A DNA stretch of 64,000 nt, taken from the NCBI RefSeq assembly GCF_000527095.1, contig NZ_AZUN01000001.1, positions 934,772 through 998,771 of the forward strand, in the 5' to 3' direction. Origin of the DNA: Methylomicrobium lacus LW14. GTDB taxonomy: Bacteria; Pseudomonadota; Gammaproteobacteria; Methylococcales; Methylomonadaceae. The notes below the pieces were generated by a model that worked only from the letters and a program-made list of their open reading frames with translations, was not told where the DNA came from and searched no databases. Shown in pieces: positions 10,285 through 60,358 of this stretch. The position numbers and the translations under genes were made by a program. Positions within the stretch are counted from its first letter, which is position 1. Each line of letters opens with the position of its first letter.

Positions 10285-10674
10285 ATGAAAGCAGCAATCA
10301 AGCGGTTCGATCCGAGCCAAGAGTTCTATACCGCCGAAAAATGCTTCATCATCGAAGTGTCCAATGCGCCGGATGATCCAGAGGTGTCGATAGCGAGGGC
10401 GCGCGTGGCGCCCGGAGTGACGACGCACTGGCACCGCGTCAAAGAGACCGCGGAGCGCTATGTGATTCTTGAAGGCAAGGGCCTTGTCGAGGTCGGCAGT
10501 CTTGCGCCTCAGGATGTCGGGCCCGGCGATGTCGTGCTGATTCCGCCGTCATATCGCCAGCGGATCACCAACATCGGGCCGGGCGATTTAATCTTTCTCG
10601 CCATTTGTAGCCCGCGCTTCAGGAACGAAGCTTACGAAGATATCGACGAGGATCAGGATTTTTTGCGGGTGTGA
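10285..10674 (+). CDS. Cupin-domain protein
   Basis: Contains a cupin beta-barrel motif (GVTTHWHRVKETAERYVILEGKG...GDVVLIPPSYRQRI). A GGAG ribosome-binding site lies before ATG 10285. Confidence 0.6.
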   Translation: MKAAIKRFDPSQEFYTAEKCFIIEVSNAPDDPEVSIARARVAPGVTTHWHRVKETAERYVILEGKGLVEVGSLAPQDVGPGDVVLIPPSYRQRITNIGPGDLIFLAICSPRFRNEAYEDIDEDQDFLRV

Positions 10675-11201
10675 CTATAAAGGTTGTTGAAGAGCCGGAT
10701 GACAACCGAAATCAGCGTCTGGGCTGTCTTGATTGCCGGCACCCGAACCGGGTTTTCCGAAGCGAAATCATCGATCGCGGCGTTCACAAAATTGACCAGC
10801 CCCATTTGCCCGGTTTCATCGAGCGAACGCTGCCGCAGGCGATCTTGAAGTTTTTCCTTGATCTTCTCGTCCATGAATTTATCCGCAAGCAACGATTGTA
10901 GCTCAGCATCCAGCAGCATCGCTTGCTTTTCAAGAAAGTCGAAGTCCAGGTCTTTGTGCGAGGGCAGGGGGCCGAAGGCCTTCCGATAGATGCAAATCAC
11001 GTCGAAGCAAAGGTCCATGAACAGATGCGACATGTCCTGGTTTTGCTCGGCGATGATGGCCGGAAAAATGCCGAAGAGGGTTTGCGCCAAAGCGGTTTGA
11101 TCAAGCTGGAATTGCTCAATAATCTTCCGGCCGGCGTTCTCGTCGAGGCTTCTGGCATATTCAATTGCCTGATATAGCTCGCGGTCTGTAAGTTCGTGCA
11201 T
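10653..11201 (-). CDS. Hypothetical protein (182 aa)
   Basis: ORF only. It is convergent with the cupin gene, overlapping it by 22 nt. No family recognised. Confidence 0.4.
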   Translation of the reverse strand: MHELTDRELYQAIEYARSLDENAGRKIIEQFQLDQTALAQTLFGIFPAIIAEQNQDMSHLFMDLCFDVICIYRKAFGPLPSHKDLDFDFLEKQAMLLDAELQSLLADKFMDEKIKEKLQDRLRQRSLDETGQMGLVNFVNAAIDDFASENPVRVPAIKTAQTLISVVIRLFNNLYSHTRKKS

Positions 11202-38708: not shown

Positions 38709-41402
38709 CTACACGGGGGGGACGTCACTCCCAACACCAAAACCGGCGATATCATATCCGTGACAACGCATGACCAGATTGGCCAGCAGTCCGGTCCAGC
38801 CGGTTTGATGCGCGGCGCCGAGCCCCTGGCCGTTGTCGCCGTGAAAATATTCAAAGAACAACAGATGTTCGCGCCAGTCGGGATCGGACTGCCAGGGGCT
38901 ATCGGCCGCAAAGGCCGGCAGGCGGCCGTCGGCATCGGGGCGGTAAAGATTGGCCATCCGGCGGGACAAGCAGCCGACGATTTCGCTCAGGGTCAACGCC
39001 TTGTCGCCGAGTCCTGGCGCAGAAACGGTATAAGCGTCGCCGAGAAAACGGTGGAATTTTTCCAGCGCCAGGATCAGCGTGTAATTGGTCGGCAGCCAGA
39101 TCGGGCCGCGCCAGTTCGAATTGCCGCCGAATAAGCCGGAATTCGACTCGCCCGGCACGTACTCGATCATGGCCTGACCGATGCCCGGCAAAACGCCCAA
39201 ATCGCGGTGCTCGGCATGGACGCGGCTGACGCTCCTGATTCCGTAAGGCGAGAGAAACTCCTGTTCGTCGAACAGGCGGCGAATGATCGCCGGCAGCATG
39301 GTGTGATCGACCAGCGACAAAAGGTGTTCGCCGCGGCCGTTTTTACGCGCGGGGCATGCGCAAATGGCATTTCCGTGGAACACGCCGCCGCTATGCTGGT
39401 TGAGCAAGGCGCGGAATCGAGGGACGTTCTTCAACAAGCGATTGTCGATGATTTCGCAGGCGAATAGAGGAATCAGTCCGACCCAGGAATAGACGTTCAC
39501 GCGATGGTGCTTGCCGTTGGGCTCCACCAGCAAATCCTTGAAAAAACCGTCCTCCGGATCCCAAAGCGAAACCCCGGTTCCGGCATGGCCGGCGAGGGTG
39601 TTGGCGATATTCAGAAACTGCGTATAAATCTGTATGGCCGCATTTTCATAATCGGGATCTTCGGTCGCCAACTCCAGCGCCATCACGGTCATGTTCAGCG
39701 CAAACATGGCCATCCAGCCCGTCGCATCCGACTGTTTCAGTTTATAGCCTTCCGGTAAGCGCCCGGAGCGGTCGAACACCGAAATGTTGTCGAGCCCCAA
39801 AAAACCGCCTTCGAATACGTTCAGGCCGTCGCGATCCTTGCTGGTGATCCACCAGGCATAATTCATCAACAGTTTGTGAAAAACGCGCTGCAGAAAATTG
39901 CGGTCGCCATGGCCGCGCTGTTGCCGTTCCATCCTGAAAACCTGCAACGCGCCCAAGGCATGCACGGGCGGATTCACGTCGCTGAAGGACCATTCGCAAG
40001 CCGGAATCTGGCCGCTCGGATGAAAATAGGTTTCTTTCAGCAAGACTTCGATTTGATGCTTGGCAAAATCGGAGTCGATCGAGCAAAACGCGATGCAGTG
40101 AAAGGCCAGATCCCAGGCCGCAAACCAGGGATATTCCCACGCATCCGGCATCGAGATCACCTCGGCGGCCCGAAGATGTTTCCAGCGCGCGTTCCGTCCG
40201 GCCTTGCGGATTTCCGGAGGCGGCAATTGATCGCCTTGCAGCCAGCGCAGCACGTCATAATGAAAAAACTGTTTGGACCAGATCATGCCGGCCATGGCCT
40301 GACGAAAAATTCGAAGATCGCCGGCGTCGGCATTCGGCAGCAGATCGGCATAAAATCGATCGGCTTCCAGTCGGCGTTGTGCAAGAACGGTATCGAAATC
40401 GGCGAAAGGATCGGCCTCGTCCTGTGCGGTCAGCACCATTTCGATGATCTGCTCGCCGCCGCCCGGAACGGTCAGCACATACCATGCGGCGCATTTGGTG
40501 CCCGTTTGTTTGGGATTGACCGCGGCGATGTCCTGATCTATCACCCAGCGGTGAAAGCCGTCCTTGACGTGGGGCAGGGCATTCGGAACCCCCCAAAGGA
40601 GGGCGCTGTTGCTTTCATTTTCAGTAAATAACAGTTCCGCGCCTTGCCTGCCATGGAGACGGTAGTGATCAAGCTCCGGATGAGAGGTTTGGATAGCCCA
40701 TCCGCATCGGCTCCCGTTTTCTCTTTTCAGCACGGGTTTATCGCTATGCTCGCCGCTCCAGTTCCAGGTATTGCGAAACCATAGCGTCGGCAAAATATGA
40801 ACAGTGGTCTGATCGGGCCCCCGGTTGCAAACCGATATGCGGATATGGATTTTATTCGTGGAGGCTTTGGCATACTCGATGCCAATATCACAGTAACGCT
40901 TGTCGGCGAAGACGCCGGTATCCAACAGATTGTAAGGCGGCTGATCGCGTCCGCGCTTTGCGTTTTCCTCCACCAGGCGGATATAGGGGAAAGCGGCTTG
41001 CGGATATTTGTAGAGATATTTCAGGTAGCTGTGACTCGGAGTCGCATCGTCATAAAAGTAATATTCCTTGACGTCTTCGCCATGGTTACCCTCGTTGCCG
41101 GTCAGGCCGAAAAGGCGTTCTTTTAGAATCGGGTCCTTGCCGTTCCATAAGGCCAAGGCAAAACACAGGCGTTGTTTTTCATCCGAAATGCCGCCCAGGC
41201 CGTCTTCGTTCCAGCGGTAAACGCGGGAGCGCGCCTGCTCATGCGAAAAATGTTCCCAGGCGCGTCCGTCCGGGCTGTAGTCTTCGCGCACCGTGCCCCA
41301 GGCCCGTTCGGATAGATAAGGCCCCCACAAGCGCCAGTTTTCTTTGTGTTGGCGTTGATTCTCAAGCCGTTGTTGTTCGGCATTGGTTTTATCGTCAATC
41401 AT
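38709..41402 (-). CDS. GH63-like glycoside hydrolase (mannosyl-oligosaccharide glucosidase/MGH1-like, (alpha/alpha)6 barrel)
   Basis: A ~897-aa ORF whose architecture and conserved acidic residues resemble GH63/YgjK-like enzymes. Start chosen at MIDDKTN (41402). Confidence 0.55.
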   Translation of the reverse strand: MIDDKTNAEQQRLENQRQHKENWRLWGPYLSERAWGTVREDYSPDGRAWEHFSHEQARSRVYRWNEDGLGGISDEKQRLCFALALWNGKDPILKERLFGLTGNEGNHGEDVKEYYFYDDATPSHSYLKYLYKYPQAAFPYIRLVEENAKRGRDQPPYNLLDTGVFADKRYCDIGIEYAKASTNKIHIRISVCNRGPDQTTVHILPTLWFRNTWNWSGEHSDKPVLKRENGSRCGWAIQTSHPELDHYRLHGRQGAELLFTENESNSALLWGVPNALPHVKDGFHRWVIDQDIAAVNPKQTGTKCAAWYVLTVPGGGEQIIEMVLTAQDEADPFADFDTVLAQRRLEADRFYADLLPNADAGDLRIFRQAMAGMIWSKQFFHYDVLRWLQGDQLPPPEIRKAGRNARWKHLRAAEVISMPDAWEYPWFAAWDLAFHCIAFCSIDSDFAKHQIEVLLKETYFHPSGQIPACEWSFSDVNPPVHALGALQVFRMERQQRGHGDRNFLQRVFHKLLMNYAWWITSKDRDGLNVFEGGFLGLDNISVFDRSGRLPEGYKLKQSDATGWMAMFALNMTVMALELATEDPDYENAAIQIYTQFLNIANTLAGHAGTGVSLWDPEDGFFKDLLVEPNGKHHRVNVYSWVGLIPLFACEIIDNRLLKNVPRFRALLNQHSGGVFHGNAICACPARKNGRGEHLLSLVDHTMLPAIIRRLFDEQEFLSPYGIRSVSRVHAEHRDLGVLPGIGQAMIEYVPGESNSGLFGGNSNWRGPIWLPTNYTLILALEKFHRFLGDAYTVSAPGLGDKALTLSEIVGCLSRRMANLYRPDADGRLPAFAADSPWQSDPDWREHLLFFEYFHGDNGQGLGAAHQTGWTGLLANLVMRCHGYDIAGFGVGSDVPPV

Positions 41403-41618
41403 GCTAACTCTCCTTTTATCTATTATCAAATAATAGAGTCTTATTAAACACATGAGCACCATGCCCATATTCCTCGAATACGCCACCAGGATTATCCCAT
41501 GACAAATTTTCAACGCCATGGTTCATGACGCCATCATCATGGGTCCGGCAATATCCGTAACCGGAGCGTGAAACGTGATCGAAGATGAGGGATATTATTT
41601 TGTTCTTGCATGACAGGA

Positions 41619-41728: not shown

Positions 41729-42163
41729 ATGGCCTACCATTACCAACCCTGGAGTTTGTTAAATCAATTGCAACGTGAGCTTGAGCGCGCGCATGAGGGC
41801 GGCGCAGGCGAGGGTTCTATCGCGACCGCCGAATGGACGCCTGCGGTCGACATCAAAGAAGACAATGAAAAATTCGTGCTCTATGCAGATATTCCGGGCG
41901 TCAAACCGGAAGACATCGACATTAGCATGGAAAACGGCGTGTTGACGATCAAGGGCGAAAAAAAGAACGAAACCCAGTCCGAACAGGAAGGTTATAAGCG
42001 CGTCGAGCGGATCTACGGCTCGTTCTACCGCCGTTTCAGCCTACCCGATACCGCCAATGCCGAAGCGATCAGTGCTAAATCGAAAAACGGCGTATTGGAG
42101 ATTGTGATTCCGAAGCGTGAAGCAGTCAAGCCAAAGAAAATCAGTGTTGAAGCTATTGAGTGA
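41729..42163 (+). CDS. Small heat-shock protein (Hsp20/IbpA family)
   Basis: An alpha-crystallin domain (AVDIKEDNEKFVLYADIPGVKPEDIDISMENGVLTIKGEK...GVLEIVIPK). Confidence 0.9.
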   Translation: MAYHYQPWSLLNQLQRELERAHEGGAGEGSIATAEWTPAVDIKEDNEKFVLYADIPGVKPEDIDISMENGVLTIKGEKKNETQSEQEGYKRVERIYGSFYRRFSLPDTANAEAISAKSKNGVLEIVIPKREAVKPKKISVEAIE

Positions 42164-43400
42164 TGCAACGGGCAAGCCAATTTTTTCTGGCTTAATCGGC
42201 TTGCCTCTTTAGGATGGTTAGATAGGCTTCGTGAGGGTACAAAGCCTATCTTAACGCATTTTCCGAGCATTAAAGACCCTAGGGTTAACCGGCAAAAGAA
42301 GCATCAACTGCAAGATATATTCTTTATCAGCCTCTGCGCAGTGATTTGCGGAGCGGATAACTGGGTTGCGATTGAAGAATTTGGCTTAGCCAAAGAGGAC
42401 TGGTTCACTGAATTGCTGGGATTAGAGCATGGCATCCCTTCGCACGACACCTTCGGTGAAGTGTATGCGGCCATTGATACCGACCAGTTTAGCGACTGCT
42501 TTTCCCGTTGGGTATCTGATTTAGCCCGTCTCACCGACGGGGAAGTCATTGCGATCGACGGCAAGTGCTTAAGGCGGAGCGTGGACAAAGCCTCAAAAAA
42601 AGCCGCGATCTATATGGTCAGCGCATGGGCGCAACAAAATAACCTGGTTTTAGGGCAGGTCAAAGTCGATGACAAATCGAATGAAATTACGGCCATTCCG
42701 AAGTTATTGTCACGGCTGGATATAGCGGGGGCCGTGGTGACTATCGATGCGATGGGGTGCCAAAAGAAGATAGCCGAGCAGATTAAACAGCAAGGTGGTG
42801 ACTATGTGTTGAGCCTGAAAGGCAACCAGGGTACTCTGCATGAGGATGTCCTTACCTTTTTTACCTCGTCGTTATCGCCGGCAGTCGCCTCTGTCAGTTA
42901 TGACGGCGAGCATGGCCGAATCGAAACGCGCTCGCTTCGAGCAACCGCCGACATTGCTTGGCTGCAAGAGCGGCATGGCTGGAAAGGCTTGCAAAGTATT
43001 ATCGCCGTCACGGCCAAAAGAGAAATCGATAACAAAGTAACCGAGGAAACGCGCTATTTTATCAGCAGTCTGGATGCCCATGATCCGAAGCGATTGGAGC
43101 GTGCGGTGCGAGCACACTGGGCGATTGAAAATAATCTTCATTGGGTGCTTGATATCGCCTTTGATGAGGACAGCAATCGAACGCGGAAAGGACATAGTGC
43201 GGCGAACTTGGCGGTGATCCGGCATATTGCCCTGAACCTGACCAAAGCTGAAAAAACGTCTAAGGTGGGAGTGAAAATCAAGCGCTTAAAGGCCGGATGG
43301 GATAACGATTATTTACTCTGTGTCATCGGGATGATTTAAGCGCGATTACCCTGCAGATTATCAGAATTCGCTCAGCGCCTACGCTGCGGCGGGATCGGCG
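42164..43400 (+). mobile_element. ISAs1-family insertion sequence (approximate bounds), transposase ORF 42341..43339
   Basis: The product has H-repeat/ISAs1 hallmarks (ICGADNWVAIEEFG, DGKCLRRS, HWAIENNLHWVLDIAFDEDSNRTRKG). The conserved N-terminal HFPSIKDPR...DIFFISLCAV segment is in frame upstream of the first ATG, with no ATG between 42164 and 42341. Terminal inverted repeats were not confidently identified. Confidence 0.65.
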
Positions 43401-43403
43401 CCT

Positions 43404-45005
43404 CTATTTAAGCCTGAAATTGAAATTGGCCTTGTGCTGCGTGCCGTCGTTGAGTTGCAACAGCAACTCGCGGCAGCTGTTCGCCCAGGCCTTATCGGTT
43501 TTCCACACGTAGGTGTACTGGCCGCTGGTCGCATCGTAAGTCAGGCTGCTGACGCCGACCGCCACGGTAGTCTCGATGCTGTCGACGGCTGCTGCGGCGT
43601 CGCAGGCGATCGGCTGCGATTTCGGAAATCCGGGCGCGAAGATCGCCAGGCCCTGATTGCCGTTCAGGCTGAACTTGACCGGTATCGCCGCCCCGGGCTT
43701 AACCTTGTTGAATACCGGCGGGTTGTCGACCGGCGCGAAGAAGCCTACAAACGGATAGGTCGCGACCTGCACGGCGAACACACCTTCGCTGCCGTCGGCG
43801 AAGTGCGCGGTGAAGGCGAGATGGATGCCGCTGAGGCCGTCGCGCCCGAAACGCAGATCGGTGACGGTCTTGCCCGCGAGCCTGTCGCCGGCCGCGATCA
43901 CCTTGCTCAACGTGCTGGCGAGATAAATGCCTTTCTGGCCGGTGCCCCCCAGCCCCAGGAAGGCGGTGTGCTCGCTGCTGACCGAGACGGCATTGAAGCC
44001 GGTGAAGCTGCCGGTGCCGCCGGGGATCAGGGTGGCCAGGTCGGCGATGCGGACTGGGTCGGATGGAATGGTGCTATTATCATACAGATACACGCCCGCC
44101 TGACCGCTGCCTGCGCCTAAGAAGGCGACGCGGATGGGTTCGTTAGGGATCGCCGCGAGCGCGAGATCGGTGAAGCCGGTGAAGCTGCCGGTGCCGCCGG
44201 GGATCAGGGTGCTCAGGTCGGCGATGCGGATGGGATCACCGGGGATTACGGGCTCACCAGGGATAAAATAAACCCCGAACGATCCGGCGCTGCCCGCTCC
44301 TAAGAAAGCGGCGCCGCCCAAGTCCAGCGCCGGGCTTTGCGGAAAGGCGGTGAACACGCCGCCCGCGCCCGGCACGGCGGCGCCGGTGCTGGAGAGCGTA
44401 GCGGTCGGCAATGGAGGCGAGGCGAATTGCACATTGTCCAGCGTGACCCTATCCACATCCGCCATCGCAATCTCGACCTTCGTGATGTCATTGCCGGACG
44501 AGAGGAAGCCGACGAATTGCCATTCGGTCGGATGCGGATATACCAGTTCAAACGTGCCCAGGACTTGATTCGACGCCCCGTAAACCGTGACGGTGTTGCC
44601 CGCGAACTGGGCGTCGTTGTACCAGAAACCCATGCCCGTTTGCGGGCTGGCGAAGCCGATGCTGACGCCGCCGCCCTCGCCCAGCGCCAGGTTGTCGACG
44701 CTCAGCACGTTAGGCAGGCTAAGGGGGCCTGCCTCGGCTGCCGCCAGAGGCGTGCCGCCATTGAACGGCGAAAAACCGACGCCGGGGTACTGGCTTGTCA
44801 CCGCCGTGCCATCGGCCAGATTGTCGAAGTCAATCAGCGTCGGGTTCGCGACCGAACTCCGCCAAGTAGCTTCGGAGGTGTAAGTCGTGAGCGCCGGCAA
44901 CGTGGCTGCGTACGCGGCAGCCGGGACGCAAACAATGAAAGCCGAAATCACGGAGGCGATCAACGGCCGCAAGAATTGCTTAGGACTTTGTTCGTTGTTC
45001 ATCAT
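43404..45005 (-). CDS. Secreted repeat protein (signal peptide; internal 59-aa repeats; C-terminal beta-rich domain)
   Basis: A 533-aa ORF with an N-terminal signal ending AYAA. A near-identical DNA repeat at 43995-44054 and 44172-44230 encodes PIRIADL(S/A)TLIPGGTGSFTGF. Confidence 0.5.
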   Translation of the reverse strand: MMNNEQSPKQFLRPLIASVISAFIVCVPAAAYAATLPALTTYTSEATWRSSVANPTLIDFDNLADGTAVTSQYPGVGFSPFNGGTPLAAAEAGPLSLPNVLSVDNLALGEGGGVSIGFASPQTGMGFWYNDAQFAGNTVTVYGASNQVLGTFELVYPHPTEWQFVGFLSSGNDITKVEIAMADVDRVTLDNVQFASPPLPTATLSSTGAAVPGAGGVFTAFPQSPALDLGGAAFLGAGSAGSFGVYFIPGEPVIPGDPIRIADLSTLIPGGTGSFTGFTDLALAAIPNEPIRVAFLGAGSGQAGVYLYDNSTIPSDPVRIADLATLIPGGTGSFTGFNAVSVSSEHTAFLGLGGTGQKGIYLASTLSKVIAAGDRLAGKTVTDLRFGRDGLSGIHLAFTAHFADGSEGVFAVQVATYPFVGFFAPVDNPPVFNKVKPGAAIPVKFSLNGNQGLAIFAPGFPKSQPIACDAAAAVDSIETTVAVGVSSLTYDATSGQYTYVWKTDKAWANSCRELLLQLNDGTQHKANFNFRLK

Positions 45006-45438
45006 GGTCGTGCTCCTTGGATTGCCTGTGGCTTAACGCAAGCCCGAGAACCGCACGGGGGCTTGTGGACTGTTCATGGTATTGATAGCGCATGATGTGG
45101 CGCCGGCCGCATCATGGATACTCAAGCATATACATCCTTCTTGACCCGTCGATGCATTTATATGGATGCATCACAGTAGAGGGTAGATGTTTTAAAAGTC
45201 CACCGTGCTAACCGTCCCAACGTTAAGACGGCATCGCAAGATAAATGCAGGCCTTGGGCATCATGCCCAGCCTCTGGTACCAATAAAGCCACGATCCATT
45301 CATCAATACGGTGATCCACGCCAGCAATTTACGTTTGAAGTACCGGGCAGACGCCGTTGTTGGCTCTTGGAAAAAATAAGATGAGCGAAGATTTTTTTCG
45401 CTTATGGCAACCCTTTACCTTATGCCGGCATAAATCCG

Positions 45439-46335
45439 CTATTTTCGGTGCTTCGCCAATAACCTATAGAGATCCAGCAAAGGCAAATAAGGCTCGCTTT
45501 CGATGGTAATATTGCGCTTTGCCAGTCGGCACTCTTTCGCGGCAGGTTCATCCGGCAGCAAGGTTTTTGGCGGCAACGGGCGATCCGGCGTGGTCACATA
45601 AAAAATGGGTGTATGGGCGTAACGTTGAATGCGTTTATCTACGCCATCCTGGTTGATGCATAAGTTGACACGTCGATGAATGCTTTCCGGGAAAACCTGG
45701 ACTAAGCATTCATCGTTAATCGCTTGAAATCGCTCTATTTCGTCATAAATGGCGTCATGTTCAGCCAGCGACCGCTGCAACAGTTTATCTAACCGGGCCT
45801 GAACTTGTTCCCGGTCCAGCTTAGTGGTTTTTCGGTACCGATTCCAAAAAAAACCGGCCGACAGCACGGGGTAGGGGAGTGCGGTAAATTTACGGCATGC
45901 TTGCCGACGATTGAAGCGTGGATAACCCAGTCGGGTCATGGCGCGTTTGGATAACCGATCGCCATCGTCATCATCCTCGCTGTCTGACAACTCAAGCTCA
46001 TTTTCGAGCGAATCCATTTTCATTAGCTGTTTATGCAGCAGATCCCGCTGCTCGTTCACTTTTTCAACCGCCATGTAGGTGGCGATCGAGCAGGGTGCCA
46101 GGCCATTATATTGGATCGTGGATCCAGGTTCCTGGCCATCGTCACTGTAAGACCAGTTCAACACGATGCTTTTCAGCATATTCCGAGTTGCGGCATGATC
46201 CCCCTCTACCTGCTGAATCCAGGCCGGATAAGCCGCATCAGCATTCAGGCAGGCTACCAATTCGTCATGCGCATCTTTAAACGTCGTGAAAACGTTGAGT
46301 AATTCGGCTTTCAATTCGGATTCTTTAGACGACAT
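45439..46335 (-). CDS. Tus-like protein (DNA replication terminus site-binding protein family), tentative
   Basis: The C-terminal half resembles E. coli Tus from memory. [25 protein letters not shown] aligns to [37 protein letters not shown] to [21 protein letters not shown] to RLHLYV. The gene has lower GC and sits beside an AT-rich islet. Confidence 0.4.
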   Translation of the reverse strand: [298 protein letters not shown]

Positions 46336-46795
46336 AGCATTCCTCGGGGTGGAAAAAATAAAGTACAGCCCTATTATACTATCATCTGATAATAGATTCT
46401 ATTTATATGTAATCCCTATCAAAGTAACCTCTTTACCAATTCAAAAAAATCATCCTACACACATAACGCATATAGCCGCATCCTTAACTAATTTAGTAGA
46501 TTTTAAAATGTTAAATAGTGGCATTATTTATTTGAAACTATAAGTTCTATTATCATATAATAGATAAAAATAGAAGAGGCCGCCGTGCATTACCTGTATT
46601 TATCAAAGTTCCAACCTTGCTCGCTCTATCCGGACATTCCCTTCAGATTTGGAGGCATTATGATCACACAAATGAGATCTGATATTTCCGAGGCTTTTTT
46701 AAAGCGAGTAGGGCGTGAATTTTTTTTGATGTTCCGCGATCATCAACGTAGCATATAATGCACGCCCCTAAAATACATATCATCCGGAGCCCTTC

Positions 46796-47008
46796 ATGCC
46801 GCCTTGGCTTATCTTTGTCATTCTGCTGGCTCTGATTGGCATGTCATCCAAAAATAAGGACACTCGGCAAGCAGAGAAAAATGCGACTGAAGGATTCCGG
46901 CACAATGCCAGCGCCGCGCAAAAAGCGCGCAAGGACAGGCTTGATCAATGCGGGGATCGTTGCAAGGACATCAAGAATGATTACACGACACCTATCGCTA
47001 ACGAATGA
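46796..47008 (+). CDS. Small membrane protein (70 aa), hypothetical
   Basis: An N-terminal transmembrane helix. Its stop overlaps the downstream lipoprotein start as ATGA. Confidence 0.3.
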   Translation: MPPWLIFVILLALIGMSSKNKDTRQAEKNATEGFRHNASAAQKARKDRLDQCGDRCKDIKNDYTTPIANE

Positions 47009-51542: not shown

Positions 51543-51680
51543 GAGCATCTCCGGGGAATTAGAAAAGGACTTTTGCGAAGCAAAGAGTCTAACAGCCGTA
51601 ATTATCTCGGTCAATATGCGTTCAGCATCGTCTTGACCGCATCGGCCAGCAAGCCTAAATGTAGCGGCCCGATAACATAA

Positions 51681-52512
51681 ATCACAGGACCCGATTACAT
51701 CCGTTTTTCGGGACCACTTTAGCTGATAATATCCGTGCGCTCTGGCCCACATTAAATGAGAATGAGCCCTGATTAATTGAGAACAGCCCGATAACATCGG
51801 CCAGGAACCACATTAACCGAGAACGGCTACCGCTTTGCTGCTAATGTGTTATGCCTTACAGTAATACGCCGGCAGCCAGCAATTGATCGTGGAGTTCTTG
51901 GGTTCGTTCAGGCGGTAATTGACCGCTCAGGAACGAGCGGATTTCCTTGGGTTTGGCGGTGAGTATGTCGGTCAACAACCTGACGTTGTAACCGTTACGC
52001 GTCAGACGTGCTTCCAACCCATCCAGGTCAGGCGCCAAAATATCTTGAATGGTATCGGCGTCGACCGGTTTTTGTCCGACTCGGAAGGCCTCCTCAATCA
52101 CAGGACCCGATTACATCCGTTTTTCGGGACCACTTTAGCTGATAATATCCGTGCGCTCTGGCCCACATTAAATGAGAATGAGCCCTGATTAATTGAGAAC
52201 AGCCCGATAACATCGGCCAGGAACCACATTAACCGAGAACGGCTACCGCTTTGCTGCTAATGTGTTATGCCTTACAGTAATACGCCGGCAGCCAGCAATT
52301 GATCGTGGAGTTCTTGGGTTCGTTCAGGCGGTAATTGACCGCTCAGGAACGAGCGGATTTCCTTGGGTTTGGCGGTGAGTATGTCGGTCAACAACCTGAC
52401 GTTGTAACCGTTACGCGTCAGACGTGCTTCCAACCCATCCAGGTCAGGCGCCAAAATATCTTGAATGGTATCGGCGTCGACCGGTTTTTGTCCGACTCGG
52501 AAGGCCTCCTCG
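51681..52512. repeat. Tandem duplication, 2 x 416 bp (transposon left-end repeat + 3' 240 bp of tniB)
   Basis: 51681-52096 is repeated at 52097-52512. This creates a second copy of the terminal repeat (52076-52256) and a tniB 3' fragment (ORF 51856..52101). Confidence 0.85.
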
Positions 52513-53297
52513 AAAGCGCGCGTCAAATAAAGCTCAAACTGTAACGGTGTCGTCAATTTCTCGCAGAGTAATGTCACGGCAGCATCGGTGATTAAAGTAT
52601 CCAGCTGGGTTTCTGCTGCCGTGACTTGATCGAGCAACCAGTACACGTACTTTTTCTTGTCGTGCCCGAAGCTGTTCAGTTCGAAAAACGTCGTTCGTGC
52701 GCCAATTTCTTCCATTGACGGGCGCAGCAAGTCGTTCTTGAGCTTTGGGTGCCCGGCCAACACCACGGACAGGGTCCCTTTGCCGCTCCGCACGATTTCC
52801 ATCAAGCGTTTTAGGGCAATCAGGGTCTTGCTCGGCAGCTGGTGAGCGTCATCAATGAACAAGGCGACCGGTTTTTTCCTTTTGCGAATCAACTCGCGCA
52901 ACGCCCGTTCTCGGAGCCCAACCGACTTAGGCAGGGGGTCATCCTTATCGATGGCCAGATCGCTGAATAATGTCTGTACCAGCGTTGCGGGTGTGACTTG
53001 GCTAACATCCAAAGCTAAGGAATTGGCAGTCAAGATGGCTTTATCTTGTTCCAGTAAGTCCTGGATTTTTTGCAGCATCGCCGTCTTACCGGTACCGACC
53101 ATGCCGGCCAGTACGATGAGCTTGCTGTCCTTGATGGCCAGCTTGAGTTCGGTGACGACTTGTTGTAATTGGGTCGTTTCGAAATAGGCGACCTGGCTAA
53201 GCGAACTCATTTCCCGGATGAGGCCATAGTGGTTTCTAATGTCACTCAGCATGAGGCGGGTTCTCCGATACATGTTCGACAGGTTCGATACAGGCAC
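52272..53297 (-). CDS. TniB/ExeA-like AAA+ ATPase (transposition helper); start uncertain (53297/53252/53210)
   Basis: Walker A (GMVGTGKTAML), Walker B (VALFIDDAHQL), and ExeA/TniB-like overall layout. Confidence 0.75.
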   Translation of the reverse strand: MPVSNLSNMYRRTRLMLSDIRNHYGLIREMSSLSQVAYFETTQLQQVVTELKLAIKDSKLIVLAGMVGTGKTAMLQKIQDLLEQDKAILTANSLALDVSQVTPATLVQTLFSDLAIDKDDPLPKSVGLRERALRELIRKRKKPVALFIDDAHQLPSKTLIALKRLMEIVRSGKGTLSVVLAGHPKLKNDLLRPSMEEIGARTTFFELNSFGHDKKKYVYWLLDQVTAAETQLDTLITDAAVTLLCEKLTTPLQFELYLTRAFEEAFRVGQKPVDADTIQDILAPDLDGLEARLTRNGYNVRLLTDILTAKPKEIRSFLSGQLPPERTQELHDQLLAAGVLL

Positions 53298-55118
53298 GGA
53301 CCCGTGCCAGCACTTCCCGCTTGTTCAGCGTGGACTGAACAAGCGCATTGATCCGAGCGAGCTGATCGGCAGACAATTTCGCCAGTGGCAGCCCCAAAAA
53401 TTCCGAAATGGCGCGTTTCGCCGCCAGTATGCTCGGGTAAGCCAACTGGTTGAATGGATCGGGATCGGCAAACGCTTGCGCGGGTAAGCCGTCGGGCCGA
53501 ATGAATGCCGCGACGTCGGGCCGATTTTCCAGGGCGGCACGCGGCAATTCGAGTTGAGCGGCCAATGTCTCGATGCGATCCGCACGCGTCTGCGTGGCTG
53601 ATTTCTTGAAAGCGCGGTAGCGATTCAAGGGGATGGGACCGCCGACCGGCAAGTAAGGACCGAAGCGTTTTTCACCGTGCTCGACAAACAATTCCTGGTC
53701 GAACAGCCCCCACCACAGCACCACCTCCTCACCGGCTAGGTCAGCATCGACCTCATACGGTATGCCGTCCACCGTGACGCGCGCATCGATCGCCACCTTG
53801 CGCCGTTCCGGTTCGCGGGCAAAGGTGCAAAAACGTTCCCAACTGCACATCGCCCGAATGCCGCCGGCGGGCAGGTTCTGCAACCAATCTTCGGCACGCG
53901 AATGCGGCTCAGAGCGATGATCCATTGCGTTGTAGCGAACCAGGAAGTTCTGTAACCAGGCATTCGCTTCCATTTCATCGCGCGGTTTCTGGAAGTGATA
54001 CAAGGTTTCATGGAGCTCTTTCACGGTGCGGAATGGGCGCTCGACTTTGCCCTTGGAACGGGCCGTGGTACGACGGCCGTCCTTGCCGGCCGGCAGGTGG
54101 GTGCGCAACTTGATGCCAAGGTAACGCATCACGCGCTGAAATACCTGGCTACGTGCCACAGGTCCGTTATCAGTGTATATCATCAGCGGGATACCTTGTA
54201 ACGGAGCGTCAGGCGAGGATTTCGCGGCCATGGCGTTGAATAGAAAACGTAAGGCGGTGACGACATCCTCGCCGTAGACGCAGTGGTACTCCTGGTAAGC
54301 CACCCCGCTGCGATCATCGACGACGGAAAACAGCATCAGGGTGGGCGCCTTCATATCCGGACGAATCCATGACGGAGCCTCGACTTCCTTGATATCATCA
54401 GCGGGATACCTTGTAACGGAGCGTCAGGCGAGGATTTCGCGGCCATGGCGTTGAATAGAAAACGTAAGGCGGTGACGACATCCTCGCCGTAGACGCAGTG
54501 GTACTCCTGGTAAGCCACCCCGCTGCGATCATCGACGACGGAAAACAGCATCAGGGTGGGCGCCTTCATATCCGGACGAATCCATGACGGAGCCTCGACT
54601 TCCTTGAGGTCCGATGGCGAAAGGTCGAATTGCCAGCAATCGTTGCTGTGCTCCGCCTGGAAGCGCACCGCAGGCGGTGGTCGCCCTAGGGTCGTGCGGT
54701 CGTAACCCCATTGTTTGAGATAGCGATTCACCGTGGTCTTGTTGAGTGTGCCGGCAGCGGCTTGAACATGGCCAGCGGGGGTATCGATCCCGAACGTCTC
54801 GATCAGCCGGATCGATTCGGCGGTCGAAAGGTGTCTGCTTTTCTTGTTTGATGTTCGCACTTTTATCGCGGCGATCAATTCGCAGTAGTGCTCTAACTGC
54901 TCTGCAGGCAGTACGCGCGGCACTCCCCGATCAGCGCGGCGCAAAGCCTTTGGCCGGCATCGCTCGGCCAGCGCCCCGTACAAGGTGGGCTCAGAAACAC
55001 CAAACGTCTGCGCGGTTTCCGCCACGACCAGGCGGCGTTCGTGACTGCGAGTCGGCAGTAATGCCAGCCGCCGTGCCAGATCGATCAAGGTCTCAGAGGG
55101 AATGATCTTTCTAGTCAC
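53242..55118 (-). pseudogene. TniA/Mu-like DDE transposase (rve integrase core + Mu transposase C-terminal domain) split by a 215-bp tandem duplication
   Basis: ORFs 54351..55118 (N-terminal HTH plus DDE core with WQFDLSP) and 53242..54354 (C-terminal domain) share the duplicated peptide MKAPTLMLFSVVDDRSGVAYQEYHCVYGEDVV...GIPLMI. The 215-bp duplication is not a multiple of 3, so it frameshifts the gene. Confidence 0.75.
54179..54608. repeat. Tandem duplication, 2 x 215 bp inside tniA
   Basis: atcatcagcgggataccttgtaacgg...gagcctcgacttccttga occurs at 54179 and again at 54394. Confidence 0.85.
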
Positions 55119-55133
55119 AGCACAATCTCGACG

Positions 55134-55727
55134 CTACCGAACCGCTCTCGATACGCCGAGGGGTACGCCGCGATGGCGCAGATAGGCGTATAAAGTGCTC
55201 TTGGAAATATGCAGATGCTCGGCAATTTGCTGGGCGCTGAGCTTGCCTTCACGGTACAGTGTTTCGGCGGCGCAAGCGGTGGATAGGGCTTTCTGCGGCA
55301 AGCCTTTCGGGCGTCCGCCGATGCGTCCACGTGCGCGGGCGGCGGAAAGACCGGCTTGCGTGCGCTCGCGAATCACATCGCGTTCAAATTCGGCCAAGGA
55401 AGCGAAAAGATTAAACACCAGACGTCCTTGCGGCGTTGTGGTGTCGATTGGATCATTGAGGCTCTTGATGCCGACATCCCGCTGTAACAGCAGATTGACG
55501 GTCTCAACCAGATGCTTGAGCGAACGCCCCAGACGATCCAGTTTCCAAACCACCACGATGTCACCCGGTCGCACCTCTTCGAGTAGCTTGGCCAATATCG
55601 GCCGCTCGGTCGCCGCGCCGCTGATGACTTCCGTGTAAACCTTGGCGCAGCCCACCTCCTTTAGCGCATCGACCTGAAGCGCTACGGTCTGATCGCGGGT
55701 GCTGACGCGGGCGTAACCAATATTCAT
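55134..55727 (-). CDS. Serine recombinase (resolvase/invertase, TniR/BinL-like)
   Basis: MNIGYARVSTRDQ carries the catalytic Ser. A resolvase N-terminal domain is followed by a C-terminal HTH (LSAQQIAEHLHISKSTLYAYL). Confidence 0.9.
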   Translation of the reverse strand: MNIGYARVSTRDQTVALQVDALKEVGCAKVYTEVISGAATERPILAKLLEEVRPGDIVVVWKLDRLGRSLKHLVETVNLLLQRDVGIKSLNDPIDTTTPQGRLVFNLFASLAEFERDVIRERTQAGLSAARARGRIGGRPKGLPQKALSTACAAETLYREGKLSAQQIAEHLHISKSTLYAYLRHRGVPLGVSRAVR

Positions 55728-55737
55728 GGGAATCTTT

Positions 55738-55806
55738 TGTCGTATGCGTATCGTCCATTATACTCATCACCCAAAAGTAAATGATCGTTTTGTCGAACGC
55801 TGACAG
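55738..55806. promoter_or_regulatory. Candidate res-like recombination site upstream of the resolvase gene
   Basis: TGTCGTATGCGTATCGTCCA at 55738-55757 and the inverted half-sites TGTCGAACGCTGACA at 55791-55805 resemble TGTC...GACA resolvase binding half-sites. Confidence 0.25.
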
Positions 55807-55809
55807 TAG

Positions 55810-58800
55810 CTAATTAGTCAAGTCGAGCAAGATTTGCAGGTCTTTGCCATTAATCCGTTCATCCCGATACAGGTCCGCATCCGGATTGAATTTCGGGTCG
55901 CCGACTTTACTGCCCAGGGCATTTTTTAACAACGCGATGTCAAGATCATCAACCAGGCTATCGCCATTGAGATCCCCGCGTATTTTAGGCGGAACGAATC
56001 CTTCAAACTCGCTGGCCTTGTAAGCATAAGTCGTGGCTAGATCGAAGCTGACCAAGTTGCTGCCGCTGGGGCCAGCTATCAATAAATCTTTTACGAAGTA
56101 AGGACCGTCTTGACCATTAGTACCGATTCTGCTGCCGTCAAAGACAAAGCTTATCTGGGCATCGCCGGCACTTAAATCCAGTTGATGCGTATAAAAACCG
56201 ATTTCCGTACCTGTTGAATCGACTAAGCGGGCGCTCCAAACGTAGGTGCCGCTCGTTTTCAGTTTTACCCCTACCTCAACTTGTAGTTGGTTGAACAAGC
56301 CGTCTCCATCGGTGTCGACCCCTCGATTGCTCGAAGAGCCCGTCAGCACGATGGCTGGAACAGTCGCTTGATTGGGGTCAAACTCGGTATACGAATAGCT
56401 TTTAGTCTCTTGCGGAAGCTGAAGCCTGTCAATTACTTTGTGAGTTTCAGGATCCTTAAGGACAACTTCCGCCCGGTATGGGCCGTCAATTTGACGTTTG
56501 AAAATATAAGCTCCGTCAAAATCAAAACTCAATTGCCGAATCCCAGGTGTTACCGTGATTGATTGTGAAATACTTGATGTATGGTAGGTTCCCGAGGTGC
56601 TCGTCAGTTCGAGCTGACTTTCCAACAGATAAGTCGCTGCTTGGGAAAAACTGGCATCAACGGTGACATTAAGGAGGTCGAACAGCCCATTGCCATTGTT
56701 ATCAACCCCTTTATCGGCAACGGAACCGTCCACCAGTTCAAACACGGAGGCGAAGTTTTGAAACTGATAAGGCTGGGTGACAAATTTGAAACCTACCGCA
56801 TAGCGATTGCCTTCGCCGCTGCTTTCTTCAAGCGACAACCCTCCATCATATGGTCCATTCAGGCCGGACCGACGCAACGGTAAACCGGGAAACACAAAAC
56901 TATACTGCGTCTGCCCGGCCGTAAGCATGACATCGTCGGCATAAGCGTTACTTATTGAGGGCTTGCCATCTTTATACAAAGACCCTGCAAAACGGTAATT
57001 ACCACTTGCGCGAACAATGAGATCCATCGTCACACGGAGACCCTCTAACATCCCATCACCATTCTCATCTACCCCCTCATCGTGCGCTCCGGTAATGTAT
57101 GCGAGAAGCTCTCCGAAAGTTTGATGATCATAATTTGGCGTTTGCAGACTTTTTGTGTTCGTTTCGCCTAAGACTGAGAGATTGAGGTCGTAGGGACCGT
57201 CTTGACCGGAACGGAAGATTTCTTCACCCGAGAACATCAGCGTTACCGTTTGCTTTCCGGATTCGGCTATCAAGGTTTTCGTGCAGTCAGCTGAAGAATG
57301 ATACTGGCCGCTGGTAATTAACTGGCCGTTTTTCCTTAATTCGCACCCTATGGTATAGGAACCCGCCTGGGTAATCTCGACATCGACATCGACAGCAAGG
57401 GCCTCATAGATGCCGTCGTTTTCAGTATCTATCAGGCGATAATTTGCGGTATCCGGGAATTGGAGCCCGCCTACGGTTGCCTCTGCATTCGCGATTAGTG
57501 CAGAAGTGGAGAGGGGAGCCGGTGGCAACAAATAACTATAATTATCCCAATCAGCTCCTGGAGATGCCGGTGCTTGGCCTGGCAATTGATAAATTTTCGC
57601 GCCTTCAACGGTAACCAAGTAAGGCCCGTTGGCATCCGCCAGCGTCTCTCCGGTTTGGTTAAAAGCAACAAACTCATTCTTTGTAGAATAAATCTTGTTG
57701 AAGGTAGCGTCATAGAAATTATTGTTATATCGGCGTAAGCTGTGATCTAAGAATCTATATCGGTCATAAACGGTACCTTCGAATGCTTTAGCATTCCCCC
57801 TGAAGAGAGGGTCGATTGATTGCTGCCCCAGAACTGTTAAAAAGCCTTTTTCTAGCGAGCCTCTTTGTATTTCCCTGTACATTCCGTCCACCCCCAGTGT
57901 TTTCGACATTGCGCTAAATACATCGCTGAACAGGTAGCAATCGGCCTGCGTGCAGGTGATCGGATCATTGACCATTCCGCTCCAGTCACGGCATTGAGGA
58001 TACGTTGAGTACTGCCAGTTGGCTCCGCCAAAGCTATAAACGCCCTGAAGTACCGCAGCATGTATCGCGGCCTCGTCCGATTTTCCGGCAGCCCACGCGG
58101 TCGCTTTTTCGTACCAGGCACGGCGAGGCGGATTAACGTTATCATTTGGGCTGGCTTTGGTCGCAAACAGTTTTCGACTGGCACCGAGGGTTTCCTGATG
58201 ATTATTTTTATTGTCATTTACTGTATAAGTGAAATTCACCAGATAACTGCCTATTTTATCCGGCACAGCCACTGGAAAATCACCCTCAAAACCTGACCAT
58301 GTCTTGGAGTCACTGCCACCCCCGCTAATGGTCCATTCGACTGATACTTCGGGCGGGTCGATGCTGTTCTCGGGGCAAGTCTTGATTTTAGCTTTCAAAT
58401 TGGGGCTGCCACCCCCGGTAAAACCCGAGAAAGGATATTCGTCGATGGCTTCTGTCGTAGTTGTCACGGTGCATGTTTGATCAAACTCTTGCTCATAAAT
58501 AACATCAATCGTTTCCTCGCCGGTATTTTGTCGAACTTTATTACCACCTTCGCCGACCGACATCTTAAGAGCCAATTTTGGGCGGATAGGGATGTGCATC
58601 GCCACCCAGTCGATGGCTGTACACCAGCTTCCGCTACTTAACGTATCGACATTGATTTGAATTTTGTTGGTAACTGGCGTTACGCTAGAGCCATTACCCG
58701 GCCGCTGAGGAAATTTCACTTTTCGAATGTCGATAGTGAAATCATTTAGTTTCCAAATATTATTATCTCCTGTCAGAAAACCTACACTTTCACCGTTGAA

Positions 58801-59259
58801 CAGTACTTCGTCTTTTTCCGCTGGCGGACCGCCAGTAACATCGACATCATAAGCAGGCATCTTAACTGCGACTTTCGCAGGAATGATACCAGCAGTAATA
58901 AACGCTGACGGGTCGATCAAATAGCCGTCAGCATCGACATCGCCGACAAATTTGTCGATAACGACTTCAATAACTAAAGGATGACCTGCGTCTGTATTAA
59001 AGGTACATCCCGTATCCAGTCCATTGCCATTGTCGGCAATGAAAACATCGCTTGTTGGCGGATCAAAAGGGGAAGTTCGATTGGCCGTGGCAGCCGAAAG
59101 TGCTGTACTGGGCGCGGGGCTGTCGCTTCGAACGTCTCTCGTTTCTTGCGCCTCGCATATTGAAAAAGTTGGTAATACCAGCACGATGGATGCAACCAGC
59201 AGCCATATCTTTATCACGTACTGTTTCAGGGTAGACGAGGAGTTTCTACACATTTTCAT
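55810..59259 (-). CDS. Large secreted protein (1149 aa) with C-terminal dockerin-like calcium-binding repeat pair; transposon cargo
   Basis: A signal peptide, then a long beta-rich region of unknown function. The C-terminus GDLNGDSLVDDLDIALLKNAL...DLYRDERINGKDLQILLD matches the duplicated dockerin type I segment pattern. GC is lower than the flanking DNA. Confidence 0.6.
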   Translation of the reverse strand: MKMCRNSSSTLKQYVIKIWLLVASIVLVLPTFSICEAQETRDVRSDSPAPSTALSAATANRTSPFDPPTSDVFIADNGNGLDTGCTFNTDAGHPLVIEVVIDKFVGDVDADGYLIDPSAFITAGIIPAKVAVKMPAYDVDVTGGPPAEKDEVLFNGESVGFLTGDNNIWKLNDFTIDIRKVKFPQRPGNGSSVTPVTNKIQINVDTLSSGSWCTAIDWVAMHIPIRPKLALKMSVGEGGNKVRQNTGEETIDVIYEQEFDQTCTVTTTTEAIDEYPFSGFTGGGSPNLKAKIKTCPENSIDPPEVSVEWTISGGGSDSKTWSGFEGDFPVAVPDKIGSYLVNFTYTVNDNKNNHQETLGASRKLFATKASPNDNVNPPRRAWYEKATAWAAGKSDEAAIHAAVLQGVYSFGGANWQYSTYPQCRDWSGMVNDPITCTQADCYLFSDVFSAMSKTLGVDGMYREIQRGSLEKGFLTVLGQQSIDPLFRGNAKAFEGTVYDRYRFLDHSLRRYNNNFYDATFNKIYSTKNEFVAFNQTGETLADANGPYLVTVEGAKIYQLPGQAPASPGADWDNYSYLLPPAPLSTSALIANAEATVGGLQFPDTANYRLIDTENDGIYEALAVDVDVEITQAGSYTIGCELRKNGQLITSGQYHSSADCTKTLIAESGKQTVTLMFSGEEIFRSGQDGPYDLNLSVLGETNTKSLQTPNYDHQTFGELLAYITGAHDEGVDENGDGMLEGLRVTMDLIVRASGNYRFAGSLYKDGKPSISNAYADDVMLTAGQTQYSFVFPGLPLRRSGLNGPYDGGLSLEESSGEGNRYAVGFKFVTQPYQFQNFASVFELVDGSVADKGVDNNGNGLFDLLNVTVDASFSQAATYLLESQLELTSTSGTYHTSSISQSITVTPGIRQLSFDFDGAYIFKRQIDGPYRAEVVLKDPETHKVIDRLQLPQETKSYSYTEFDPNQATVPAIVLTGSSSNRGVDTDGDGLFNQLQVEVGVKLKTSGTYVWSARLVDSTGTEIGFYTHQLDLSAGDAQISFVFDGSRIGTNGQDGPYFVKDLLIAGPSGSNLVSFDLATTYAYKASEFEGFVPPKIRGDLNGDSLVDDLDIALLKNALGSKVGDPKFNPDADLYRDERINGKDLQILLDLTN

Positions 59260-59708
59260 GCAATGCGCCTGTAAAATGAAGGGGAAAGTATTGTCAATTT
59301 TTGGGGTTTGAGGCGCAATGGAATGGAAAATTTAGCTAGCTTATTAGCTGATGCGCTTTTGCGATAACATAAGAGAGTGGCGGAAATTTGTCAAACGGCG
59401 TTGAAAACTTTCTGGCGCGGTAGGGCGGGTAGAGCGGAGCGTTCTTCAAATTTTCGAAGAGTATGGAAACCTACCGCAAAGTTTTGAACGAAGAGGCTAC
59501 GATTGTAATGTCTACCAACAGCGATCTTTTCGAATTGCTCAAGCGGATCGAACAGAAAAGGTCATAGTAATGGATCTGTAAAGCCAAGGGTGCGCTGCGC
59601 GCACCCTTGGCTTGGCGATCAGCAGCAAATCTCCGCCTTGAAACCCGCCGCGCCGCCCGGCACCGCCAAGCTCAACGGCCTCGATCCTTCGGCCTGATTA
59701 AAAGCCCC

Positions 59709-59963
59709 CTAGAGCATTTTCATATAGGGTAAAGGTGCAATGCTGTTAAGTTAAGCCGTCATCTCGGCAGGGATTGCCGAGATCCACGACTGCACGGACG
59801 CAGGAGGTAGGGCAAGGCAGGAGCAATTGCCGAGAGTACATGGAAGTATTAAAGCCTGCCATCCTTGGCAGTTTAATTCCGGCACTCCCTGCCGGAATGA
59901 CGAACCCTGGCTTAACTTAGCGGCATTATTCAAGACCGTACATCCGAAACGAAAATGCTCTAG
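59709..59963. repeat. Nested inverted-repeat element (possible MITE or structured ncRNA) in the transposon's non-coding right arm
   Basis: Outer perfect 13-bp inverted repeat ctagagcattttc (59709-59721) / gaaaatgctctag (59951-59963). Inner 16-bp imperfect inverted repeat at 59743-59757 / 59908-59923. Internal perfect hairpins: atctcggca-gggat-tgccgagat, ctgcca-tcct-tggcag and ccggca-ctccc-tgccgg. Confidence 0.4.
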
Positions 59964-60358
59964 AAAAACTGCCTGCCTGACCTAACAGCCGCATCGACGA
60001 ATTACCGCCCTTTCGTTGCTCGGATTAAATCATAGCCTTGGCAGCCTGACTATGTGAAAGGGCTGGGCGCTTACACTCAGTCATTTCTTTCTATACATCC
60101 TATACACCGATTGCCCGCTTGGGGTCGGGTATAGTCAATCGTTTGACAGCATGAGACGGGTTGGTACGCATTATTTGCACTATGTTCATTCTCAGTTAAT
60201 CTGGTTCCTAACCGATGTTATCGGGCTGTTCTCAATGAATCTGGGCTCATTCTCGTTTAATGTGGGCCGGAGCGCATGGATATTATCAGCTAAAGTGGTC
60301 CCGAAAAACGGATGTAATCGGGTCCTGTGATTTATGTTATCGGGCCGCTACAGTTAGC

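Follow-up and report, generated by a model that had tools for sequence, protein, structure and literature searches.

A highly diverged Tus-superfamily protein of methanotrophs and the palindromes beside its gene: a putative autoregulated DNA binder

The 64-kb window analysed here (the whole stretch of DNA, 64,000 nucleotides of contig NZ_AZUN01000001.1) carries a minus-strand gene at 45439-46335 whose product an earlier note, made from the sequence alone, had likened to the replication terminus-binding protein Tus of Escherichia coli. This tus-like gene and the elements associated with it are as follows.

45439..46335, minus strand: tus-like coding sequence, 298 aa with an ATG start, an open reading frame whose relatives are annotated 'hypothetical'
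45384..45402, minus strand: terminator-like hairpin with a T-run, 37 nt past the stop codon
46336..46795: AT-rich divergent intergenic region of 460 bp, with two upstream palindromes and both promoters
46379..46395: proximal palindrome CTATTATCAGATGATAG (gene strand), 60 bp upstream of the ATG, a putative autoregulatory operator
46547..46563: distal palindrome CTATTATCATATAATAG, 228 bp upstream of the ATG
41420..41436: third palindrome CTATTATCAAATAATAG, in the divergent intergenic region between the genes for a GH63 glycoside hydrolase and Hsp20, ending 18 bp from the probable GH63 ATG

The AT-rich islet described upstream of the gene is real, with a GC content of 0.355-0.365 across 46200-46800 compared with about 0.53 around it. 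The low GC of the gene itself is only marginal (0.50 versus 0.53-0.54 in the flanks). No Rfam family matched the intergenic region at 46336-46795, and no cluster of DnaA boxes was found in it, so that an origin-like region was rejected. The dN/dS ratio among the Methylomicrobium orthologues of the tus-like gene is 0.05-0.10; such strong purifying selection indicates that the gene is functional.

The window protein and E. coli Tus share only about 15% sequence identity. The Tus family of Pfam, PF05472, matched the protein with an E-value of 0.0069 and 15.9 bits, below the gathering cut-off of 22, over a colinear stretch (protein residues 145-267, profile positions 146-274). BLASTP against the Tus sequence (identical to PDB 1ECR over residues 1-309) paired residues 146-191 with Tus 155-201, i.e., the WN..L.R(D/E)(E/Q)V.A.L(E/D)K segment that had been recognised by eye. 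The WN and Q.(H/Y)A.TP(L/I)-type motifs of the C-terminal half also align, and the terminal L..LY motif proposed at the same time is plausible, though it falls outside the profile alignment. No NCBIfam match was obtained for the window protein, and neither phmmer nor a 15-sequence family profile retrieved Tus from the PDB. Together with the low identity and the Pfam score, these results would suit a spurious resemblance between unrelated protein families.

However, the relatives of the protein and its predicted structure point clearly to Tus. The close family comprises 19 clusters at 90% identity, all annotated 'hypothetical protein' and with named members only from Methylomicrobium, of which M. 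lacus and Ca. M. oryzae are 91% and 82% identical to the window protein. PF05472 was matched individually by 11 of 15 aligned members of this family (best E 2e-6). Searched exhaustively with a profile, a set of 1.84 billion representatives yielded a superfamily of 440 clusters (defined at 50% identity) with E<=1e-3, 179 of them with E<=1e-10, nearly all about 300 aa long and matched end to end. Among 149 aligned representatives of the superfamily, 100 matched PF05472 (best 2.5e-24), and one bridging sequence, P0095, matched both the family profile (5.5e-18) and E. coli Tus (5e-17). The profile of 149 relatives, with the window protein as its first row, matched the Tus chains of the PDB with an E-value of 1.4e-13 over nearly their full extent (profile 8-268, Tus 5-289). 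An AlphaFold2 model was obtained from the family alignment (predicted local distance difference test score 76.5, predicted template modelling score 0.67). A Foldseek search with this model found 1ECR and 4XR0-2 at E 1e-10, probability 1.00 and a template modelling score of 0.62, whereas the next match had an E-value of 0.15, leaving E. coli Tus as the sole matching PDB fold. A second, independent structure comparison also picked out Tus by a very large margin. The model thus predicts the Tus fold of two alpha+beta domains and the inter-domain beta-strands that join them. With two structure comparisons singling out Tus and highly significant profile and intermediate-sequence bridges that are colinear over the full length, a spurious resemblance is extremely unlikely. 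By its full-length fold and profile homology, the window protein belongs, as a highly diverged member, to the Tus superfamily, and it is almost certainly a Tus homologue.

In the profile alignment, the superfamily-invariant columns N94 and R148 pair with N118 and R157 of Tus. The family-invariant strand GFFWNRYRK pairs with Tus RFGWANKHI, and the PESIHxRVN segment with later Tus strands. The pocket of the Tus cytosine lock consists of I79, F140, H144 and G149. These residues pair with Y63, R131, R135 and R140 of the window protein in a register that is uncertain at such low identity, and the pocket is apparently unconserved, as far as the aligned sequences indicate.

The earlier note had also described two repeated motifs upstream of the gene as possible operators. 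Both exist, and both are palindromes of 17-19 bp; the second, however, lies at 46547-46563 and not at 46556-46573, and the third copy at 41420-41436 had been missed. The proximal palindrome, read from the sequence, exactly occupies the 17-bp spacer between a -35-like TAGAAT (46401-46396) and a -10 TATAAT (46378-46373). This promoter was not called in a consensus promoter scan, its -35 element matching at 3 of 6 positions. The distal palindrome overlaps the -10 element of a strong promoter-like sequence on the plus strand, TTGAAA-18-TATAAT (46532-46561), which is directed towards the divergent genes for 70-aa and 300-aa products. The third palindrome lies 4.0 kb past the tus-like stop codon, or 2.9 kb in related contigs without the insertion sequence (IS) described below, and the same copy is present at 13827 in one of these contigs (L009). 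Its place near the GH63 start raises the possibility that the Tus-like protein also regulates the GH63 and Hsp20 neighbours. These are the three copies within one mismatch in the window, where 0.22 would be expected even with three mismatches allowed, and three or more occurred in 0 of 100 shuffles. No further copies were found in the rest of the 64 kb. The palindromes are weak as RNA hairpins (-4 to -5 kcal/mol, z -0.8 to -1.8); given this weak folding and the lack of an Rfam match, an RNA element or a hairpin terminator was rejected.

The palindrome was scanned with up to two mismatches in 211 kb from nine loci, which cover Methylomicrobium, Methylobacter, a gammaproteobacterium containing IcmW (locus L006) and two more distant homologues. 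An alignment of the upstream regions of four Methylomicrobium species contains a single invariant block, TCTATTATC.GAT.ATA, whose core CTATTATC-N-GATAATAG is an 8-1-8 palindrome; the consensus of the 19-bp site is TCTATTATC-W-GATAATAGA. There are 15 copies in the 211 kb, every one of which lies within -431 to +4003 of a tus-like gene. In the window and in L001/L015, L002, L003, L005, L006 and L019, one copy precedes the ATG by 43-60 bp; in L008 the distance is 87 bp. This proximal position is kept in the Methylomicrobium, Methylobacter and L006 orthologues although their neighbouring genes are unrelated. Extra upstream copies occur at -228 in the window, -171 in L003, -431 in L006 and -118 in L019, and copies downstream of the stop codon at +195 in L002, +127 in L003 and +4003 in the window. 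The motifs overlap promoter elements and, across genera, keep a constant distance from the ATG, which suggests that they are very probably operators, as had been proposed. The sites show only hints of asymmetry, with G at +1 in 13 of 15 compared with 8 of 15 for C at -1. A G at -12 is present in 10 of 15, on a constant side in the orientation of the gene.

The nearest outgroups of the close family are also methanotrophs, Methylomarinum sp. Ch1-1 and Methylobacter marinus. The Methylomarinum sp. Ch1-1 protein carries the automatic UniRef name 'DNA replication terminus site-binding protein' and is 'hypothetical' at NCBI. In Methylomarinum, where identity to the window protein is about 30%, a different and perfect 16-2-16 palindrome, GCATTAAAATAGTATA-AA-TATACTATTTTAATGC, ends 8 bp before the ATG, and its 22-nt core is repeated 840 bp upstream. 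The layout is thus kept with a different palindrome, suggesting that the site co-varies with the protein. Furthermore, no partner gene was found to be co-conserved beside the tus-like gene across the loci, which leaves the tus-like product as the only constant candidate binder.

Considering that each Tus-like protein has its own site by its gene and that no other gene is co-conserved, binding to its own site and self-repression is the simplest reading. On balance, we consider it probable from these comparisons that the gene encodes an autoregulated DNA binder of the Tus superfamily and is a chromosomal resident in methanotrophs of the Methylomonadaceae (Methylomicrobium, Methylobacter and, more distantly, Methylomarinum). 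By its position 43-60 bp from the ATG, the putative cognate site would lie in the tus-like promoter. Binding of the protein to the palindromes would be mediated by the conserved strands between its domains (GFFWNRYRK and the PESIHxRVN segment). Once occupied, the proximal copy, which fills the -35/-10 spacer, would repress the gene's own promoter, comparable to Tus-TerB on E. coli tus. It is known that Tus represses its own gene via TerB in the tus promoter (PMC8707476). The other copies might repress or insulate neighbouring promoters, and they may serve as local roadblocks to helicases or RNA polymerase.

The same palindromes could instead be operators of another regulator, with the Tus-like protein binding different DNA. 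It is dimeric helix-turn-helix or ribbon-helix-helix regulators, and not monomeric Tus, that typically bind palindromes, the copy at 41420 lies in the promoter region of the unrelated GH63 and Hsp20 genes, and the GATAAT hexamers of the half-sites loosely recall Fur boxes. However, no other gene is co-conserved, all 15 copies adjoin a tus-like gene, and the motif changes as the Tus-like protein diverges in Methylomarinum, which makes another regulator unlikely. A Fur box in particular was rejected. The Fur consensus is GATAATGATAATCATTATC, of which 6-7 of 19 positions match by eye in the best registers; the hexamers are arranged as R-x-F, not F-F-x-R, and there are no iron-related neighbours.

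Several observations weigh against autoregulation by the Tus-like protein. E. coli Tus binds an asymmetric site as a monomer, which makes a palindrome unexpected for the Tus fold. The isoelectric point (pI) of the window protein is 6.0, owing to an acidic, low-confidence loop at residues 114-124, unlike that of Tus (9.57); the Methylobacter orthologues have values of 9.1-9.6. In addition, M. lacus has only a single upstream copy of the palindrome, and a clean equivalent was not found for the distant homologues L023 and L024. The symmetry of the sites also allows for a further-reaching reading, which we consider doubtful. Here the methanotroph proteins would form a Tus lineage with specificity for DNA of two-fold symmetry (a 19-bp site in the present case and a perfect 34-bp palindrome in Methylomarinum), and would make non-polar, bidirectional barriers bracketing a short chromosomal segment. 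For this, two back-to-back monomers or binding in either orientation might be used.

Ter sites are asymmetric, with a GTTGTAAC-type core and a conserved G-C at position 6, and arrest is polar. The sites adjoining the tus-like gene lack this asymmetry: they are 19-bp palindromes, with only the weak one-sided G at -12 in 10 of 15. A scan of the window for the E. coli-type Ter 16-mer consensus with up to three mismatches gave 0 matches, which bears out the statement that no canonical Ter core lies upstream. Two bare GTTGTAAC octamers in the window are at chance level and fall inside an unrelated duplication. No dif site with up to three mismatches was found in the window (-46/+18 kb of the gene) or in loci L001-L008 and L022. 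A dif-like 28-mer, GGTACGCATTATTTGCACTATGTTCATT, at 60163-60190 has 8 mismatches to E. coli dif and abuts a transposon-like right inverted repeat; as the dif of Methylococcus capsulatus is fully canonical, this candidate was rejected.

The location of the replication terminus was also sought from GC skew and from KOPS-like octamers. Beyond about 46 kb the cumulative GC skew of the window levels off, and a rightward direction is shared by 5 of 6 KOPS-like octamers, which is only suggestive. In most loci the sign of the skew does not change across the gene, and this holds for L006 (-0.08/-0.11) and L007 (+0.14/+0.12), the two loci in which the skew is strong. A terminus placed by skew and KOPS was rejected, with the window suggestive and the other loci without a flip. 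In complete chromosomes, the tus-like gene lies at 0.305 of 4.367 Mb (7%) in M. lacus (CP169217.1) and at 2.867 of 4.444 Mb (64.5%) in Methylomarinum (CP157743.1), but these coordinates cannot be converted into distances from the terminus, because the local skew sign in both is opposite to that of a record starting at oriC.

These data bear on whether the gene could belong to a genuine chromosomal fork trap, with polar arrest at Ter-like sites in the terminus and with the palindrome as its autoregulatory member, as in the type I traps of Edwardsiella and Dickeya. Fork arrest at Ter is the only known biochemical function of the Tus family (PMC10331603), and a Ter beside the gene that represses tus is the type I pattern (PMC8707476). 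The window, L002 and L003, in which sites flank the gene, would fit such a trap, the one-sided G at -12 could give polarity, and the flattening of the skew near 46 kb and the rightward octamers lean the same way. Nevertheless, the core site is two-fold symmetric with no further copies in the 64 kb, no canonical dif was found within -46/+18 kb, the skew keeps its sign across the gene in most loci, the neighbourhood varies among Methylomicrobium species, and the lock residues align, in an uncertain register, to residues unlike those of Tus. No positive evidence for a trap emerged; we consider a genuine fork trap improbable, and the 'orphan fork trap' of the earlier note leans negative. From symmetric sites clustered at the gene and the absence of a nearby dif or skew switch, we infer that a classical polar terminus trap is unsupported. 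The symmetric sites around the gene and the apparently unconserved lock pocket argue against such a trap, not against barrier activity.

The known systems resemble the present one only in part. The window protein differs from E. coli Tus (Tus-TerB structures 1ECR, 2I06 and 4XR0; PF05472) by its low identity below the Pfam cut-off, by lock-pocket residues that are unconserved in the profile alignment, and by its acidic loop and pI of 6.0. The palindrome has no likeness to GTTGTAAC-type Ter, and the sites lie around the gene rather than spread over the terminus, with no dif near. With the type I traps of Edwardsiella tarda and Dickeya paradisiaca (Toft et al. 2021, PMC8707476) the locus shares a small number of sites, one of them beside tus as a repressor site and another across the gene. 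Those traps, however, have two asymmetric, oppositely oriented Ter sites at least 18 kb apart that bracket the GC-skew switch opposite oriC (PMC8707476), whereas the sites here are symmetric, 1.3-5 kb apart, and accompanied by no visible skew switch. The RTP-Ter system of Bacillus subtilis is a functional analogy only, being a terminator with inverted-repeat-type sites; RTP is an unrelated winged-helix dimer, and no relation in sequence or fold to the window protein was found.

The mobile tus genes of R1-type plasmids, of Pseudoalteromonas chromosome II and of the Methylophaga and Halomonas megaplasmids belong to the same superfamily as the window protein. The Methylophaga and Halomonas plasmid genes annotated as Tus are 24-27% identical to it over 81-93% of the query (tblastn), and one of them lies 3.8 kb from RepB. 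The Methylophaga copies share with the present locus a conserved motif just upstream of the gene. This motif (approximately TGTGTTATAWTATG) is a different one; it is asymmetric and recurs in inverted orientation at a distance of about 300 bp, and the pair in L020 (NZ_CP143310.1) and L021 (NZ_CP095734.1) may represent plasmid Ter-like sites. Mobile tus genes are found near replication initiators, in contrast to the window gene, which is chromosomal with no rep or par gene near.

The neighbours of the tus-like gene are genes for GH63, Hsp20, a PKD protease and hypothetical proteins, with the following on the side of its stop codon.

38709-41402, minus strand: GH63/MGH1-like glycoside hydrolase, probable ATG at 41402
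41729-42163, plus strand: Hsp20 gene, divergent from GH63
42341-43339: ISAs1-type transposase (DDE_Tnp_1 and DDE_Tnp_1_assoc), 2.1 kb from the tus-like gene, with the 533-aa gene between
43404-45005, minus strand: open reading frame of 533 aa, with an unusually high GC content of 0.61-0.68, no Pfam domain and an N-terminus that is signal-peptide-like by eye

The exact window protein occurs on 21 metagenome contigs. In L009, L010, L011 and L013, the identical protein is encoded in the order tus-like gene, 532-aa gene, Hsp20 and GH63, without ISAs1; L012 and L014 end before the IS site. The counterpart of the 533-aa open reading frame varies in these otherwise identical contigs, being 532 aa, 474 aa or, in L011, split into 161 and 352 aa. 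Because contigs with the identical protein and the same gene order lack it, ISAs1 entered the interval between Hsp20 and the 533-aa gene recently, as a strain-specific event, and is unrelated to the tus-like gene. The element noticed in the earlier note is present, but the link drawn from it to the gene is not supported.

Further from the gene, an element of about 8.7 kb (51652-60360) is flanked by 172-nt inverted repeats (51652-51823 and 60189-60360) that are 94% complementary. It contains a perfect 300-nt duplication (51680-51979 and 52096-52395, spaced by 416 bp) and a tandem pair of perfect 215-nt repeats at 54177-54606. Related contigs have Tn3 transposase and resolvase genes at this place, so that the element is probably a Tn3-family transposon or its remnant.

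The suspected Methylococcales-type host was correct: the genome is that of a methanotroph, with M. lacus and Ca. M. oryzae as the closest named relatives. Among 185,579 species representatives, the close family is present in at least 5, all of them in Methylomicrobium or Methylobacter; this number is a lower bound from a scan with two peptide patterns. Orthologues are 82-91% identical to the window protein in Methylomicrobium, 56-59% in Methylobacter and about 30% in Methylomarinum. This divergence broadly by genus and the strong purifying selection speak against the recent horizontal acquisition that had been suggested. The tus-like gene lies beside a kdsB-aminotransferase-hom-thrC-recJ-ppiD-like-bolA block both in Methylomarinum (L022, CP157743.1) and in a Methylobacter metagenome-assembled genome (L005), and in L006 recJ alone is near. 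The recurrence of the recJ linkage in three lineages suggests an old chromosomal residence, with the recJ block as a possible ancestral site. No phage relatives were found by tblastn, and a phage origin was rejected. Among Methylomicrobium species, the neighbourhood differs and transposons are common nearby.

Two further sets of homologues were noted. L006 (7464-7946) and L007 (8772-9818, 12742-13599 and 18960-19634) encode homologues with 41-52% identity in genomes with IcmW or many ankyrin-repeat genes. By these genes, the genomes look like those of Legionellales-type intracellular bacteria, and the close family would then extend beyond methanotrophs. In the L024 locus (1-2800 and 10001-10930), the homologue shares 46% identity with the Methylomarinum protein and is located in an island of many small open reading frames beside Prok-E2, JAB and ThiF genes. 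This setting is that of a ubiquitin-like conjugation or defence-type cluster and suggests that some superfamily members are found in mobile elements.

Such contexts raise the question of whether the gene is a mobile or plasmid-derived cassette, i.e., the remnant of replication control from an integrated plasmid or chromid with little present function in the chromosome. The Tus-annotated relatives on large Methylophaga and Halomonas plasmids, including the one near RepB, and the origin-proximal tus genes of Pseudoalteromonas chromosome II and R1-type plasmids are in agreement with this, as are the small-ORF (open reading frame) island of L024, the frequent transposons, and a conserved unit of site, gene and site within a variable context. 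Many tus genes have indeed been classed as 'mobile' by Galli et al. (PMC6549158). However, no replication initiator, partition or integrase gene adjoins the gene in any Methylomicrobium or Methylobacter locus, the gene diverges broadly by genus under purifying selection, its GC content is near that of its flanks, the recJ-block linkage recurs in three lineages, and phage relatives are lacking. A cassette is accordingly quite unlikely. The partition module proposed in the earlier note finds no counterpart either, as no ParA/ParB-type Pfam family was present among the neighbours in any of the loci examined.

Resident tus genes have been reported in most Enterobacterales, on Pseudoalteromonas chromosome II and in most Aeromonadales, with the others regarded as 'mobile', and Tus-Ter is viewed as limited to a few groups of gammaproteobacteria and as recently domesticated from plasmids (PMC6549158, PMC10331603). 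The survey of tus genes was built on PF05472 matches in UniProt at Pfam thresholds (PMC6549158); since the methanotroph clade falls under the Pfam threshold, surveys of this kind would have missed it. Tus-like proteins of methanotrophs are not described in the papers that we found. If the protein merely autoregulates and represses its neighbours, the gain would be modest: a 'hypothetical protein' would be re-annotated as a 'Tus-superfamily DNA-binding protein'. If the symmetric sites are recognised as such, this could represent a previously unrecognised mode of Tus action or an ancestral state that preceded the polar Tus-Ter lock of E. coli, and the Tus superfamily, with its 440 clusters, would be far more widespread and diverse than the view of 'Enterobacterales, Aeromonadales, Pseudoalteromonas' holds. 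A resident, strongly conserved clade with the Tus fold in methanotrophs widens the known distribution of a textbook fork-trap family. Monomeric asymmetric binding, the cytosine lock and terminus placement could each be ancestral to Tus or an enterobacterial specialisation, and the palindromic, cognate-looking sites of this clade offer a natural test between the two, in a simple, testable system of one protein and one to three sites.

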